Below are positions 8,489 to 56,740 of a stretch of 64,000 nt of DNA, piece after piece. This DNA is from an uncultured Candidatus Saccharibacteria bacterium (GTDB taxonomy: Bacteria > Patescibacteriota > Saccharimonadia > Saccharimonadales > Saccharimonadaceae). The stretch spans positions 11,034 through 75,033 of the forward strand of contig CALHQH010000046.1 of assembly GCA_938036625.1 (NCBI GenBank), in the 5' to 3' direction. Position numbers and translations under genes: made by a program. The notes beneath the pieces are model-generated. The model saw nothing but the letters and a program-made list of their open reading frames with translations. It had not been told where the DNA came from and searched no databases. Each line of letters starts with the position of its first letter. Position 1 is the stretch's first letter.

Positions 8489-8755
8489 ATTCTCCTTGTT
8501 ACTGTACTTATCTTATAGTATAGCGTAGAACCGATGGATATAGCGGATTTGTGGGCCTTTCCCTGGTGTGCCCTCGCTCTAGCTCCCTCCTCCTCTTTGT
8601 TGCCTTTCAAATTCTCTCCACTCACTTTATTTTTCCTACCTCAGATGAGCCTATTTTATAAAAGCATGAGCGATATCACAATTATGACAATGGGGCGATT
8701 TGTAGTATCATATATAAGTATAAGTGTTATACCAATGAGGTGAGGAGGAAACACA

Positions 8756-51670: not shown

Positions 51671-51724
51671 ACAATCTCCCTCTCGCGTTCTATTGTAGCA
51701 TGTATCCATAAGCAGTATACCAGC

Positions 51725-51747
51725 AAAAAACCAGCCTGGTAGCTGGC
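51725..51747 (-). terminator. short GC hairpin plus U6 after the 76-aa ORF
   Basis: CCAGC pairs with GCTGG, followed by TTTTTTGC on the minus strand. Confidence 0.5.
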
Positions 51748-51773
51748 TTCTGCTGGTTATTGATACGCGCCAC

Positions 51774-52004
51774 CTATTGGCAGCCCTCGCACATGGTTAG
51801 CTCCGCTGGATCTGGCATAATAACAGGAGTGCCACTCGCCGCTGCTTGGTCGATGGCAACCTGCTGAGCAGCCAGCAGTGCCTGCTCGATAGCGTCAAGC
51901 TTTTCCTCCAGCGTCATGTCGTCCGTCAGCTGAGGCTTGCTAGTCTGCGCCTGCGTGGTTGCTGGATCGGTTGTTGGTGATGTCGTTTGTGTCGTCTGCG
52001 TCAT
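51774..52004 (-). CDS. 76-aa protein with T/Q-rich N-terminus, one predicted helix and a C-terminal ..LTMCEGCQ
   Basis: Codon usage resembles core genes (CTG, GAG, CAG). It has its own terminator. No clear SD. Confidence 0.5.
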   Translation of the reverse strand: MTQTTQTTSPTTDPATTQAQTSKPQLTDDMTLEEKLDAIEQALLAAQQVAIDQAAASGTPVIMPDPAELTMCEGCQ

Positions 52005-52045: not shown

Positions 52046-52061
52046 ACGCTATATATAGCGT
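52046..52061. promoter_or_regulatory. perfect palindrome ACGCTATATATAGCGT (NrdR-box-like)
   Basis: Seen directly, 42 nt upstream of ATG 52004 and 2 nt after the stop of the upstream gene. Confidence 0.4.
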
Positions 52062-52062
52062 T

Positions 52063-52458
52063 TTATGCAAGGTAATGCACCCAATTTTCTGTTGTGGAAT
52101 TATCATCCAGCTGGCCAATCGGTGCAACATACCACTGCGGCTGGGCACACTGCGGGCGGAAGCTCCCCAGCTTAGCCGTATATACCTCGGTGATGGCCGC
52201 GACTTCGTCCTCGCGGGCTTCGCGCACCGTGGTGTGGAGATAGACAGCCTGCTTCGCGTCATTCCACACCACAAACTCTGCCCGCCCAGTGCGAAAGGCA
52301 TTGTGCGAGTGGCGCGCCTCACGATCAGACAGCCAGGCAATCATATCCCCCACCCGGACAAAGTGCAGTGGCGTCACCAGCGGCGTGCGGTCGCGATTCA
52401 CCGTAGCCAGCGCACCAACTGGGACTGTATCGAGGATGTTTTGCGTCAGGGTATTCAT
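52063..52458 (-). CDS. pyridoxamine 5'-phosphate oxidase-like FMN-binding split-barrel protein
   Basis: VPVGALATVNRDRTPLVTPLHFV..AEFVVWND. 131 aa, general PNPOx-like pattern. Confidence 0.7.
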   Translation of the reverse strand: MNTLTQNILDTVPVGALATVNRDRTPLVTPLHFVRVGDMIAWLSDREARHSHNAFRTGRAEFVVWNDAKQAVYLHTTVREAREDEVAAITEVYTAKLGSFRPQCAQPQWYVAPIGQLDDNSTTENWVHYLA

Positions 52459-52681: not shown

Positions 52682-53659
52682 CTACTTCGTCGTATTCACC
52701 TCATAACTCGTATTGGTACTCTCGAAGAAGTTCACCAGCTCCAGCGTGTCGTTGGCGGCGGCCATCCACTTGGCTGGGTTGGTGACGTTGTACTCTGGCT
52801 CAAAGCCCAGCTCTTCCAGCCGCCGGTCGGTCATGTACATCACATATTGGTTGACGTAGTCGGCGTTGAGGCCCAGGATACCACGCGGCAGCATGTCTTT
52901 GTTATACGCCTTTTCGAGCTCAACGGCTTCCAGGATCAGGCTGCGGATTTCGTCGGCAAATTCCTCGGTTTGTAGATCTGGGTTTTCGTGCAGAATCGTC
53001 AGTAGCAGGTTAATGCCAAACTCCAGGTGTAGATTTTCATCCTTCGTCACCCAGTCGAGCAGCGTGCCGACGTTGCGCAGCAGATTGCGCCGGCGGAAGC
53101 TCATCCCCACCATAAAGCCACTGTAGAACCAGATCCCCTCTAGCACGATATTATACGCCACCAGGTTGCGCACAAAATCCTTCTTGCCCTCCAGCGTCGT
53201 CACATCCGGGCGCTCCTCCATCATGCGCGTAACGTATTTGGTCTGGAAGGCAGCTTTATCGGCCAGGGATTTTTTGCCCCAGCCGGCGGCATAAATTTCC
53301 TCACGGTCAAACGGGAAGGTCTCGATAATATACTCGAACGTCATAAAGTGATTGGCCTCTTCCCACATCTGCTTCGAAAGATACAGGTGGCACTCGGCGG
53401 CATTAACACAGGGGTAAATACCAAAAGCCAGCGATTTATTAATCAGCAGCTCGTTGGGATTAAGGTAGCTAATCACCGTCTTCAGGGCATGCTTTTCGTC
53501 CTCGCTCAATTTCTCAAAATCGGCCAAATCCTGGCTTAGCTGCACCTCATTGGGGAACCACGTGTTAGCCACCGCTTGGTTGTATAAGCGGTACGCCCAG
53601 TCATAGCGCACCGGCTTGAGCTGCAAGCCATCGCGTACGCCTGATCCTAGAATGCCCAT
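52682..53659 (-). CDS. nrdB: ribonucleotide reductase small subunit, class Ic-like (Phe at the radical-Tyr position)
   Basis: Metal ligand pattern is E70, E101-x-x-H104, LEGIWF and KDENLH. Residue H104+4 is F108. AAGGAGG RBS. Confidence 0.85.
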   Translation of the reverse strand: MGILGSGVRDGLQLKPVRYDWAYRLYNQAVANTWFPNEVQLSQDLADFEKLSEDEKHALKTVISYLNPNELLINKSLAFGIYPCVNAAECHLYLSKQMWEEANHFMTFEYIIETFPFDREEIYAAGWGKKSLADKAAFQTKYVTRMMEERPDVTTLEGKKDFVRNLVAYNIVLEGIWFYSGFMVGMSFRRRNLLRNVGTLLDWVTKDENLHLEFGINLLLTILHENPDLQTEEFADEIRSLILEAVELEKAYNKDMLPRGILGLNADYVNQYVMYMTDRRLEELGFEPEYNVTNPAKWMAAANDTLELVNFFESTNTSYEVNTTK

Positions 53660-53784
53660 TATTACCTCCTTGTTGTATTACTTAATAATTTCGTATCTAA
53701 TAATTTTTACCAGTCGTATTCTACTCGTCATATCCCCCGACACGTTCTCCATCTTCTGGACTAGCCTCTGGATACTAGATAATC

Positions 53785-54147
53785 CTACGATTCTGGATCA
53801 ATCGATGGCGTCTCGTCAGATATTTGACCATCCTGCTCTTCAGCACTCGCATCAGTGCCAAAAATATCGAGCTCCGGCTGGGTCCACCCTTGAGGCTTAT
53901 CGGGGTGGTATATATTCCCCATACCTCGGCTATCCCACGACGGGTCACTTGCCGTTACGTCGCCAGGCACAGCGTGGACATCGCTGTCTTTGTGCGTGCT
54001 ATTCACCCCCTCCAGTGCTGCAGCGCCAACACCACGGCTCACACTCAAGGTGGCCAATTCGGCTCGCTCTGAGAGCGGCAACTTAGCAAAGTCTATCATG
54101 TCTTGCTCACCCCTCATCCCTGCTACTGAGGTTTTTTCTTCGTACAT
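53785..54147 (-). CDS. acidic 120-aa ORF between nrdA and nrdB, in frame with nrdA
   Basis: The junction on the minus strand reads nrdA ..GAG GAG TAG ATT ATG. The AGGAGGAG at the end of nrdA could serve as an RBS. First codon positions are G-rich. No Cys, no motif recognised. Confidence 0.5.
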   Translation of the reverse strand: MYEEKTSVAGMRGEQDMIDFAKLPLSERAELATLSVSRGVGAAALEGVNSTHKDSDVHAVPGDVTASDPSWDSRGMGNIYHPDKPQGWTQPELDIFGTDASAEEQDGQISDETPSIDPES

Positions 54148-54150
54148 AAT

Positions 54151-56583
54151 CTACTCCTCCTTCCCTTCCTCTTGTTTCTTGCGTGTGCGGTAGAAGCCAC
54201 CAAAGCCCACGCGCTTCGCATCTTGGTGGAGTTTTTGCTCGGTTTTGTTAGCGCGAATGGAGACCTGCTCGGACTGGTGGCGTGGCTTCACGTGCAAATA
54301 ATACGTCGTTTTCAGGCCGCGACGCCAGGCTTCACTGTAGATCGTAATATACTCCTCGATATTACGCGATTCTAAATACATATTGCGGCTAATCGCTTGA
54401 TCGACCCACTTCTGAGCGCGGGCCGCCACCTCGATGAAGGCGTAGGGGCTCAGCTGAAAGCTCGTCTTATACACATCGCGCACCGCCTGAGGGATCTGCT
54501 CCATGTGCTGGATGTCGCCTTGGTTAGTAAGCAGCTCATCCTTGAGCTCCTCCCACAAGCCGAGGGCTTTGAGCTTGCGCACCAGGTTAGCATTAACCTC
54601 GAGGAATTTGCCATTGAGCGTGCTCCGGCTAAAGATCTGGCTAAATTGCGGGTCGATCCCTGGAGTGGTGCCCGTCACGTGCGAGATATTGGCGGTAGGC
54701 GCGATGGCCATCAGCGTGGCATTGCGCATGCCGCGTTGCACCTTGGAGCGGAGCGCCTCCCAGTCGAGGCGGCGAGTCGTGTTAATTGCTACTACTTCAC
54801 CCCGCTGCGCGCCAAGCCGGTCGATCGTGTCGATAGGCAATTCCCCCTTGCTCCAGCCACTGCCAGCAAAGTTAGGATAGCTACCGCGCGTCACTGCCAG
54901 CTCGGCCGACTCATCGATGGCATAGTAGCTAATAAACTCCGCCAATTGGTCAACCAGCTCATACGCCGCCTCAGATTCGTAGCTCAGCTCGAGCTTCTCT
55001 AGCACATCAGCCAGGCCCATAAAGCCCAGGCCAATCGCCCGGTTTTGCAGATTGCTATTCATCGCTTCAGGGATGGGTGTTGTGGTAATGTCTACAAGGT
55101 TATCAAGCTGGCGCGTGGCCGAGCGCGTGGCCTGCTCGAGCCGTGGCCAATCCCACGTCTTGGTCGCGTCATCCAGGAAAGCGCTGAGGTTAATACTCAC
55201 CAGATTACACACCGCAATATTGTGCTCATCTTGCGGCAAGGTGATCTCTGTACAGAGGTTGCTGAGGTGAATAGTACCAGTGTTATTGTTAAGCGCCCGG
55301 AGATTGATGGCGTCCTTCCAGGTGAGCCATGGGTGGCCGGTCGCCTGCAAACTACTCAGAATTCTGTGGAATTGCTGGCGCGCAGGTAGCTTGTCATAAG
55401 CGCGTAGCTTACCCGCTTCGGCCTGGGTGATGTAATACGCATACCGCTTAGCGAAAGCCGCACCATACAGCTCGCTCAAGTCACTCACCTCAGCTGGGTC
55501 AAAGAGATACCAGTCTTCATCAGCCTGCACCCGGCGCATAAATTCATCGCTAATAAACACCGCCGTGTCGAGGTAGCGTGTCCGCAAATACGGGTCGCCG
55601 GAGTTTGAGCGTAGGTCGATGAATTCTCTAAAATCGATGTGCCAGTTCTCCATATACACCGCTGCCGCACCCATCTTTTTGCCTTTGCGCGACACCGCAA
55701 ACAGTGCCGTGTCGACCATCTTCATAAAGGGGATTGGCCCGGTACTTGTTGTATTAGTTGTCTTGACGGGGCTACCCGCCGCCCGCAGCTTCGTAAAACT
55801 GACACCGATACCGCCTGTCCCTTTAGCAATCCACATTGTATCGCGCACACTCTTGGCAATCGACTCCATATCATCCTGCACTTCCATGACGAAGCAGTTG
55901 CTCAGCTGCGGGAACAACCCACCAGCATTGACGCGAGTGCTACCGCCCGGGCTGTATTCGAGATTAGCCATGTGCTGGTAAAACTCAATGGCTGCCTCGG
56001 TGGGGTGCTCCTCGTTGTAACTCAGTCCCATGGCAATGCGCATGGTGGTAAACTGCGGCACTTCGAGCGGCTCACCGTTTTGCTTGCGCAGGGCGTAGCG
56101 ATTGCGGTTGGTCACCACGCCAAGATATTTACTCAGTCTGTCTTTACTCGGGTCAAGTGCAGCAGCCAGGTGCTCGAGGTCGAAGATTGTCTCATCTTGC
56201 ATGCGCGGGTCGAGCAAACCGTCGGCCACCGCCTGGCGAATATAACGCGGGAAGGCCTCCCTATGACGCTGGCGCAGCTCTTCATCAGTGGTATATACGC
56301 CCAGCAAATCGCGGTAGATCGTGCCCAGCAGCAGGCGCGCCGCAATCGTATCGTAGTCTGGGTCATCCTTGATGTTCTGCACCACCGTCTGGATGAGCGT
56401 CTCTTCCAGCTGCTTGGTCGTCATCCCATCAAAGAGCGTCAGCTGTAGCTCGCGAGCGATCTGCACAATCTTCTGTAACGGATCGGCCAGCCCCTGGCTT
56501 GCCGCCAACAACGTGGCATTTATCTTGGTTGTGTCGAATGGCTCGGTCGTGCCATCGCGCTTGGTAATATGAATTGTCATCAT
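54151..56583 (-). CDS. nrdA: ribonucleotide reductase catalytic subunit, class I, with N-terminal ATP-cone
   Basis: ATP-cone ITKRDGTTEPFDTTKI. Active-site motifs LSNCFVME, NLCTEITLP, AVCNLVSINL and TTYYLH. SD AAGGAG..GGAGGG before ATGATG at 56583. Confidence 0.95.
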   Translation of the reverse strand: MMTIHITKRDGTTEPFDTTKINATLLAASQGLADPLQKIVQIARELQLTLFDGMTTKQLEETLIQTVVQNIKDDPDYDTIAARLLLGTIYRDLLGVYTTDEELRQRHREAFPRYIRQAVADGLLDPRMQDETIFDLEHLAAALDPSKDRLSKYLGVVTNRNRYALRKQNGEPLEVPQFTTMRIAMGLSYNEEHPTEAAIEFYQHMANLEYSPGGSTRVNAGGLFPQLSNCFVMEVQDDMESIAKSVRDTMWIAKGTGGIGVSFTKLRAAGSPVKTTNTTSTGPIPFMKMVDTALFAVSRKGKKMGAAAVYMENWHIDFREFIDLRSNSGDPYLRTRYLDTAVFISDEFMRRVQADEDWYLFDPAEVSDLSELYGAAFAKRYAYYITQAEAGKLRAYDKLPARQQFHRILSSLQATGHPWLTWKDAINLRALNNNTGTIHLSNLCTEITLPQDEHNIAVCNLVSINLSAFLDDATKTWDWPRLEQATRSATRQLDNLVDITTTPIPEAMNSNLQNRAIGLGFMGLADVLEKLELSYESEAAYELVDQLAEFISYYAIDESAELAVTRGSYPNFAGSGWSKGELPIDTIDRLGAQRGEVVAINTTRRLDWEALRSKVQRGMRNATLMAIAPTANISHVTGTTPGIDPQFSQIFSRSTLNGKFLEVNANLVRKLKALGLWEELKDELLTNQGDIQHMEQIPQAVRDVYKTSFQLSPYAFIEVAARAQKWVDQAISRNMYLESRNIEEYITIYSEAWRRGLKTTYYLHVKPRHQSEQVSIRANKTEQKLHQDAKRVGFGGFYRTRKKQEEGKEE

Positions 56584-56684: not shown

Positions 56685-56740
56685 CGCTATATATGTAGCG
56701 TCTATCCCCTACTATAGACGCCAGATGTGGTGCTTGGCAA
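56685..56740 (-). promoter_or_regulatory. candidate nrdA promoter (TTGCCA-N18-TATAGT) overlapped by two dyads
   Basis: On the minus strand, -35 is at 56740..56735 and -10 at 56716..56711. The dyads are GCGTCTAT-N8-ATAGACGC (56698-56721) and CGCTATATAT-G-TAGCG (56685-56700). Confidence 0.45.

Follow-up and report, generated by a model that had tools for sequence, protein, structure and literature searches.

In yeast Rnr1, the C-terminal tail of a class I ribonucleotide reductase (RNR) catalytic subunit (R1) acts in trans between protomers, and the 'genes-in-pieces' NrdA of Aeromonas phage Aeh1 is a class I R1 that is functional as two polypeptides. A detached redox subunit has been described in class II: NrdJb of the split Pseudomonas aeruginosa enzyme carries out thiol-disulfide exchange, binds the catalytic chain NrdJa (apparent Kd 260 nM) and is required in vivo, and dithiothreitol partly bypasses it (PMC4520616). 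A phylogenetic study of RNRs treats cysteine-free C-termini for class II only (10.1101/2022.04.23.489257). Here we analyse a 64,000-nucleotide stretch of DNA from an uncultured Candidatus Saccharibacteria bacterium (contig CALHQH010000046.1, positions 11,034 to 75,033; hereafter the window), which encodes the class I subunits NrdA and NrdB and, on the same strand, a 76-residue open reading frame (ORF) that we call the small ORF. On comparison with related sequences the small ORF is, in evolutionary terms, almost certainly the distal C-terminal tail of NrdA turned into a separate polypeptide. That its product serves NrdA as a trans-acting redox tail is a functional statement for which the same comparisons argue with a probability of roughly 0.75. 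A literature search returned no description of a split class I R1 tail, although its coverage of subscription journals was incomplete and an earlier mention is possible.

We class the arrangement as a split RNR in which the redox subunit is encoded apart, the enzyme being of class I and the detached part no more than a tail peptide. As in NrdJa/NrdJb, the catalytic chain lacks the redox cysteines, an adjacent gene supplies them, and relatives carry both on one chain; the class II enzyme is the closest precedent for detached C-terminal modules, one to which a preliminary description of the window had pointed. The two systems differ in class (AdoCbl-dependent class II there, class I in Saccharibacteria) and in the nature of the detached part, since NrdJb is folded, with predicted IscU-like and zinc-finger domains (10.1101/2022.04.23.489257), whereas the small protein is a helix-plus-tail of 57–79 residues without a zinc finger. 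They also differ in that the Saccharibacterial tail gene has moved away from nrdA in some lineages. With the canonical class I R1 tail of the NrdAz-like clade the small protein shares a C[DE]xCQ-stop ending, its extreme C-terminal position and its flexibility, and in the nearest relatives a P.DP.E motif upstream. Unlike that tail it is not covalently attached, has usually lost the first of three cysteines, and has a conserved N-terminal helix that is found in only some fused tails (such as that of P0305, below). As in yeast Rnr1, the tail may serve the active site of another chain, but the yeast tail stays tethered to its partner protomer. The Aeh1 split, by contrast, is the product of a homing endonuclease and runs through the catalytic body, so that it does not separate the tail alone.

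Linkage of the small gene to a tail-less NrdA

NrdA retains the active-site elements attributed to it in the preliminary description (LSNCFVME, NLCTEITLP, AVCNLVSINL and TTYY), and the reported absence of tail cysteines is confirmed, with none in the 48 residues that follow the YY of TTYY. The match to NCBIfam model NF005101 spans model positions 1–793 of 822 and leaves the tail end of the model unmatched. The best solved relative is P. aeruginosa NrdA (5im3, E = 9e-192), which places the protein in the NrdAz-like part of class I (for background see 10.1101/2022.04.23.489257); together with its NrdB partner it is a class I and not a class II (AdoCbl) enzyme. NrdA therefore keeps the cysteine pair that is oxidised on turnover and is without the usual internal shuttle, and a co-inherited gene encodes that shuttle sequence.

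To survey the small ORF and its neighbours, one genome per species was scanned; 284 loci were found and the best 79 of these were analysed. All 79 come from Saccharibacteria or Patescibacteria metagenome-assembled genomes, and in all 79 the small ORF adjoins nrdA/nrdB. Three layouts occur: (a) nrdA-nrdB-PNPOx-small, the window's own order, with a PNPOx-family gene in third place; (b) nrdA-nrdB-small; and (c) nrdA-small-nrdB. Every NrdA tail that could be read in this set (74/74) lacks cysteine, and the same is true of 120/120 NrdA clusters with an identity of at least 73%. A second set of 80 metagenome loci was picked by NrdA similarity alone. The 3' end of NrdA is included in 79 of them, and the tail is cysteine-free in each (79/79). 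The small ORF is present in all 61 of the loci whose downstream DNA extends for 2.5 kb or more and in 77/79 overall, the two loci without it having 172 nt or less of downstream DNA; it lies directly 3' of nrdA in 73 loci, and three of three further contigs chosen by NrdA also carry it. Throughout these 79 + 77 loci it forms a cistron of its own, not covalently continuous with R1. The linkage of NrdA and the small ORF is perfect in both directions, and neither a tail-less NrdA deprived of the ORF nor the converse was seen in either set, so that the synteny and the shared absence of tail cysteines anticipated from the single locus hold across the clade.

The small ORF is a real gene under strong purifying selection. 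A first homology search returned 101 small proteins, all from Saccharibacteria; among the 100 sequences accepted as family, 98 end in CEGCQ, one ends in CVGCQ and one is without the motif. A profile search with the family gave 2500 candidates at E <= 10, the best 120 of which are all 57–59 residues long, annotated "hypothetical" and from Saccharimonadales. Family members are mostly of this length (range 57–79 residues), and CDGCQ, CESCQ, CDSCQ and CDGCE occur as further C-terminal variants. Conservation is concentrated in two blocks, DDMTLEEKLxAI and DPAELTMCEGCQ-stop, which appear in the alignment as near-invariant MTLEEKLxAIxxA and DPA(E/D)LTMCEGCQ-stop; within the helix region M30–L36, A38, I39 and A42 are invariant. 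These blocks are unchanged across lineages whose NrdA proteins are only 67–100% identical, while up to six synonymous codons per position encode the invariant residues, and single-base codon differences are synonymous in 13132 cases and non-synonymous in 3208.

The same data bear on whether the small ORF might be a decaying remnant of nrdA, an assembly or frameshift artefact, or a segment joined to NrdA by recoding. Such an origin is invited by layout (c), in which the ORF follows immediately on the nrdA stop, and by the more distant locus L081, in which a comparable ORF overlaps that stop (ATGA). However, hundreds of assemblies made independently show the same split, a separate Shine-Dalgarno sequence and ATG serve the ORF, and synonymous changes far exceed non-synonymous ones. 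Among layout (c) loci the ORF shares the frame of nrdA in some cases only, and this variation points to two cistrons rather than to a frameshift. In the window, moreover, it lies two genes away from nrdA with a promoter region and terminator of its own. Recurrence, the separate Shine-Dalgarno sequence and selection effectively refute the remnant or artefact version, and we regard this family of explanations as a whole as extremely improbable.

The shape of the small protein agrees with its first description as a disordered T/Q-rich N-terminus, one helix and a C-terminal CxxC. An AlphaFold2 model built with 46 homologues leaves residues 1–29 disordered, forms a helix at residues 32–57 with a predicted local distance difference test (pLDDT) score of about 80, and has a floppy C-terminus (pLDDT about 53 over the last 19 residues), so that the helix alone is confident. 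The chain ends ...PDPAELTMCEGCQ-stop, which places the CxxC (MCEGCQ-stop) at the very C-terminus; it has two cysteines only and no fold beyond the single helix, and thus resembles R1 tails in being a flexible segment and not a folded domain. No Pfam or NCBIfam model matches it. A weak match to phrog_14482 in PHROGs (E = 3.8e-4), over residues 19–43 at the end of the T/Q-rich region and the start of the helix, was disregarded. Thioredoxin, glutaredoxin and NrdH are also small CxxC proteins that feed electrons to RNR and are sometimes encoded in nrd operons, but these redoxins reduce the tail, whereas the small protein would be the tail itself. Its assignment as a redoxin of this type was rejected on the absence of a thioredoxin fold and of a Pfam or NCBIfam match, and on the position of the CxxC at the extreme C-terminus.

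Homology to fused R1 tails and origin of the split

A search with NrdA covered 1.84 billion representatives, and the 150 best matches were read at their C-termini. A CxxC lies within two residues of the end in 130 of these, and the commonest ending, CExCQ-stop (typically ...ACSIDNPDCEACQ), is found in 81; tail cysteines are absent in seven. The closest fused relatives end ...CPIDPAERAQCDSCQ (57% identity) and ...CPTDPAERALCESCQ (52% identity). The first of these, P0222 (916 residues), reads YYLHMKPRHTAEQ...GFG...GFG, followed by a P/V/A-rich linker of ~90 residues and a final VCPIDPAERAQCDSCQ; the second, P0223 (984 residues), has the same plan and a final ACPTDPAERALCESCQ. A further fused protein, P0305, has the C-terminus ...LTAEQKQDIEREMRL...GACPIDPFEKVMCTSCQ. 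The pattern P.DP.E...C..CQ is common to the small protein and all three, and D65, P66, C72, C75 and Q76 (small-protein numbering) do not vary among the split ORFs and the fused NrdA tails. Two split ORFs (L158 and L159) end in ACPVDPAERALCEGCQ, which is almost the tail of P0223. When the small-protein family was aligned with the last 57 residues of P0305 using hhalign, the match covered 46 columns, helix included, with E = 4.5e-6. With HMMER, a profile of the small protein gave no more than weak scores among the 150 NrdA representatives (E = 6.7e-4 at best, for the C-terminus of P0223), and a profile of the 16 C-terminal residues gave nothing significant against the same proteins; because HMMER performs poorly with such short motifs, we relied on motif and position statistics together with hhalign.

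The catalytic chains show the complementary half of the pattern. The proximal tail elements of the window's NrdA recur in fused relatives upstream of their linker and cysteine tail, and a GFGF or GFGGF motif with basic residues stands at the new C-terminus of every split-clade NrdA, kept in all tails examined; GFGF is also present, sometimes repeated, in P0222, P0223 and P0305. Since the C-terminal blocks are homologous, the split-clade NrdA corresponds to the fused protein up to GFGF and the small protein to the remainder. The earlier suggestion that the redox tail has been split off as a separate small protein is therefore supported from two sides, by linkage in both directions and by homology to fused R1 tails.

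Comparison with the fused proteins outlines the likely course of events. The ancestor was an NrdAz-like class I R1 comprising the barrel, YYLH.KPRH.(S/A)EQ, GFGF, a low-complexity linker, (a helix) and CP.DPAE..C.xCQ-stop. The cut fell within the linker; NrdA was left with everything as far as GFGF but without any tail cysteine, and the distal part gained a start codon and a ribosome-binding site for itself. Most environmental Saccharimonadales still have the small ORF between nrdA and nrdB; in the oral/mammalian sub-clade that includes the window it appears to have been relocated 3' of nrdB, with a palindrome-bearing promoter and a terminator of its own. Loci of the common layout (c) have the nrdA stop, AGGGGGA within about 15–25 nt and then ATG AAC GC..., and this spacing, with a real Shine-Dalgarno sequence some 20 nt past the stop, is the trace expected of a clean split in place. 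In the fused relative L080 nrdB comes straight after nrdA, which makes layout (c) the arrangement expected right after fission. Layouts (a) and (b) would then be later relocations that gained the palindrome-bearing promoter, an order that we infer by parsimony and not from a tree.

The regulatory signals around the relocated gene also fit the preliminary description. A hairpin with a U6 tract directly follows the stop codon as the proposed terminator, one that a consensus terminator scan of the minus strand did not flag. Related palindromes precede both the small ORF and nrdA, differing in the length of their central AT run. Taken alone, one match with three mismatches or fewer is not significant, being reached in 38/100 shuffles. 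Other genera, however, also keep the box in front of the small ORF, directly ahead of a -10-like hexamer (TACAAT or TATAAT), and it is conserved there in both layout (a) and layout (b). Both promoters have AT-centred 16-bp palindromes; no second box in phase was identified at either, and tblastn with E. coli NrdR found no nrdR in the window. The palindrome that precedes the small ORF resembles an operator of the NrdR type and may be bound by NrdR, and the small ORF is co-inherited and probably co-regulated with the RNR genes.

Proposed role in active-site re-reduction

We propose the following cycle for the small protein as a redox tail in trans. Each turnover would oxidise the NrdA active-site pair, formed by the cysteines of LSNCF and AVCNL. 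The small protein would dock on NrdA, probably through the invariant amphipathic helix MTLEEKLxAIxxA, which might also dimerise and so match the NrdA dimer; this acidic helix may have its partner in the GFGF end of NrdA. The flexible end DPAELTMCEGCQ could then enter the active site, where its CxxC would reduce the disulfide by chemistry presumed to be the same as that described for the tethered class Ib tail (PMC11903788). Once oxidised, the small protein would receive electrons from a reductant of the thioredoxin type, whether still docked or after its release into solution. A protein that shuttles in trans would therefore be a third, non-covalent class I subunit, with a role like that of NrdJb in class II.

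Transposon sequencing (Tn-seq) data are available for Southlakia epibionticum ML1, in which the genes have the matching order SEML1_0033 (nrdA), SEML1_0032 (nrdB), SEML1_0031 (PNPOx), SEML1_0030 (a 195-nt hypothetical) and SEML1_0029 (CTP synthase), and in which SEML1_0030 stayed unannotated even after structure-based searches (PMC10633639). Between T0 and T2, normalised reads fell from 5792 to 2183 for nrdA, from 1318 to 771 for nrdB and from 682 to 117 for SEML1_0030, and rose from 1009 to 1490 for the PNPOx gene, whose mutants were thus not depleted (PMC10633639 Table S1). This pattern is consistent with a common phenotype of the small gene and the RNR genes.

Several points weigh against a redox tail in trans. 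All of these genes, those for RNR included, were called non-essential in co-culture (PMC10633639), and the SEML1_0030 counts come from 8–12 insertions in a gene equated with the small ORF by synteny and size. The HMMER scores are weak, and the case for tail homology draws on motif identity, terminal position and hhalign. The canonical tail of the clade has three cysteines (C-x5-7-C-x-x-C), of which most small proteins keep the last two. The upstream reductant is without a candidate gene in the 64-kb window: E. coli TrxA, TrxB, NrdH and GrxA queries gave no tblastn match to a thioredoxin, thioredoxin reductase, NrdH or glutaredoxin there.

The dispensability of RNR in co-culture makes modulation of the enzyme conceivable, and one alternative is that the tail-derived protein is now a regulator, either a tail mimic that sits in the active site or at a tail-docking site and gates RNR, or a redox sensor, functionally like yeast Sml1, with another reductant serving NrdA directly. 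Stand-alone R1-tail ORFs in phage contigs that have no class I RNR gene nearby lend this some colour, as free tails may act on another's enzyme. Yet the cysteine pair and its surroundings are nearly invariant, in the very form used by fused tails, and NrdA throughout the clade has no other tail cysteine, so that the ordinary route of re-reduction would be missing; co-regulation and 1:1 linkage also fit a subunit better than an inhibitor. We consider a regulator unlikely.

The identity of NrdB raises a different possibility. Its best match in the Protein Data Bank is C. trachomatis R2 (1syy), with EEANHFMTF aligned to EEAVHTHTF and a Phe opposite F127; by this alignment, with Phe at the radical-Tyr position and Glu as first metal ligand, NrdB is class Ic-like. 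The small protein could accordingly be imagined as a metal-handling peptide that assists assembly of the Mn/Fe cofactor, the more so as its TMCEGC (M-C-x-x-C) loosely resembles the MxCxxC of metallochaperones. Against this, the AlphaFold2 model (one helix plus disorder) has no ferredoxin-like HMA fold and Pfam finds nothing; the fused locus L080 has a class Ic-like NrdB, yet no stand-alone small ORF was called among or downstream of its nrd genes; and the motif matches R1 tails in position and sequence, its presence anticorrelating with tail cysteines in NrdA. Metal handling is accordingly very unlikely. Phe occupies the radical-Tyr position in 4/4 NrdB proteins examined (window 52682-53659 (-), L080:7009-8028, L081:1622-2611 and L082:5915-6919), and class Ic-like chemistry is not tied to tail fission, because these proteins accompany fused as well as split NrdA.

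If the small protein is a redox tail in trans, it would open up re-reduction, the half of the class I cycle that is hardest to reach, the tail being normally a disordered stretch within a large protein. A natural, separate tail of 57–76 residues would allow titration, labelling, cross-linking and cysteine variants with the catalytic subunit untouched. Recombinant NrdA/NrdB from these organisms would probably seem inactive with physiological reductants unless the small protein were added. The assignment would also give a function to a large "hypothetical" small-protein family of Saccharibacteria, including cultivated and genetically tractable strains.

Parallels in other lineages and features of the locus

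Comparable arrangements occur beyond the clade. In L081, whose NrdA is 62% identical to that of the window, the ORF that overlaps the nrdA stop encodes 39 residues (1380-1499) and ends in VPIDPMESLMCDSCQ; in L083, which has an intein-containing NrdA in a phage-like context, a 42-residue ORF directly after nrdA (8595-8723) ends in KACSIDNPDCEACQ. These tail-only ORFs are probably independent fissions. In two further loci a glutaredoxin is encoded immediately 3' of a tail-less nrdA (L082:5387-5686 and L084:2938-3231) and has its own R1-like end (...YETCASCEG or ...YEVCENCQ in this pair; ...EDDFELVGAGGQVYETCASCEG-stop in L082 and ...DDDFLAGAQTSDKYEVCENCQ-stop in L084), so that the tail appears to have moved onto the redoxin, merging both roles. 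Redoxin fusions such as Grx::NrdB of Facklamia ignava (PMC6187632) likewise show RNR electron-delivery modules to be evolutionarily mobile among subunits, but there fusion adds a redoxin, whereas the Saccharibacterial fission removes the tail from NrdA. Taken with the tail-only ORFs and the glutaredoxin-tail fusions, our results suggest that the RNR tail has been split off and fused again repeatedly in evolution. No tail-bearing ORF was recognised with the tail-less NrdA of L085 and L086, the gene downstream in L086 being neither translated nor examined.

Viral contigs (IMG/VR) were scanned for DNA encoding DCEACQ-stop, which gave 30 stretches (L090–L119). About half of them are short ORFs of 27–137 residues with complete R1-type tails, sharing an acidic-aromatic motif, [DE][DE][FWM]x[LV], upstream (for example EDWELD or EEDFLVG). 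Their neighbours are terminase- or portal-like genes, and no class I nrdA/nrdB was found within the flanks of a few kb that were examined, the contigs not having been searched in full. One reading is that the phage tail ORFs plug into or hijack the host RNR. More broadly, free R1-tail peptides might be a widespread and so far unrecognised class of diffusible electron shuttles or modulators of RNR, serving as an obligatory third subunit in Saccharibacteria, fused to glutaredoxin in other bacteria and phages and occurring as tail-only proteins in phages, a generalisation that we put forward tentatively and think somewhat doubtful.

Table 1. Positions of the nrd genes, the small ORF and associated elements in the window, with example viral stretches from other contigs.
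Feature	Position	Strand	Description
Small ORF (76 aa + stop)	51774..52004	-	Almost certainly the detached distal C-terminal tail of NrdA; conserved family, purifying selection
Small ORF residues 65-76, DPAELTMCEGCQ	51777..51812	-	Putative redox CxxC at extreme C-terminus, homologous to R1 tails
Small ORF residues 30-57	51834..51917	-	Conserved amphipathic helix MTLEEKLxAIxxA..., presumed docking or oligomerisation element
Small ORF residues 1-29	51918..52004	-	T/Q-rich disordered N-terminal extension, specific to the window's sub-clade
Hairpin + U6 directly 3' of small-ORF stop	51720..51756	-	Likely intrinsic terminator; -24.3 kcal/mol, z = -3.3
Perfect 16-bp palindrome ACGCTATATATAGCGT, then TACAAT	52046..52061	.	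Small-ORF promoter/operator region, resembles NrdR box
PNPOx-family (FMN-binding split-barrel) gene	52063..52458	-	Pfam PF01243; between nrdB and small ORF
nrdB	52682..53659	-	Class Ic-like radical-generating subunit by alignment, Phe where class Ia has the radical Tyr
nrdA	54151..56583	-	Catalytic subunit; ATP-cone, all-alpha and barrel domains; active-site Cys intact; truncated Cys-free tail
NrdA residues 761-810 (YYLHVKPRHQSEQ...GFGGF...KK-rich)	54154..54303	-	Retained proximal tail; no Cys
GFGGF motif (GFGF in relatives), NrdA residues 793-797	54193..54207	-	Near new NrdA C-terminus
Palindrome CGCTACATATATAGCG, related to ACGCTATATATAGCGT	56685..56700	.	Upstream of nrdA
Promoter-like site upstream of nrdA	56711-56740		Consensus scan
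Example viral stretches	L099:10761-10781; L103:2210-2230; L114:1313-1333		Scan for DCEACQ-stop

On the minus strand of the window the order is nrdA, a 490-bp spacer, nrdB, the PNPOx-family gene, the small ORF, pyrG and argS (Table 1); gene calls and Pfam thus agree with the earlier placement of the small ORF on the same strand, 3' of nrdB and separated from it by one gene. An Rfam scan of the window gave no match. The nrdA-nrdB spacer (53660-54150) contains an ORF of 120 residues (53785-54147, minus strand) with no Pfam match. In other loci the same gap holds unrelated short ORFs (80 residues in L087, 36 in L089), and the spacer ORF is for this reason probably not a conserved gene.

Outside the clade, the tail-less NrdA of L086 is part of a 1300-residue product (L086:4001-7903) that joins DNA polymerase III beta-clamp domains, an ATP-cone and the R1 body, with no tail cysteine; it lies in a phage-like replication module that includes Thy1, an SNF2 helicase and SSB. 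The PNPOx-family gene, present in layout (a) and absent from layouts (b) and (c), is found in many diverged Saccharibacteria with 31–98% identity across loci and has a weak NCBIfam match to F420/PPOX-class oxidoreductases; it could be an RNR-linked flavoprotein that helps to assemble the cofactor or supplies electrons, or it may have been inserted there without any link to RNR.

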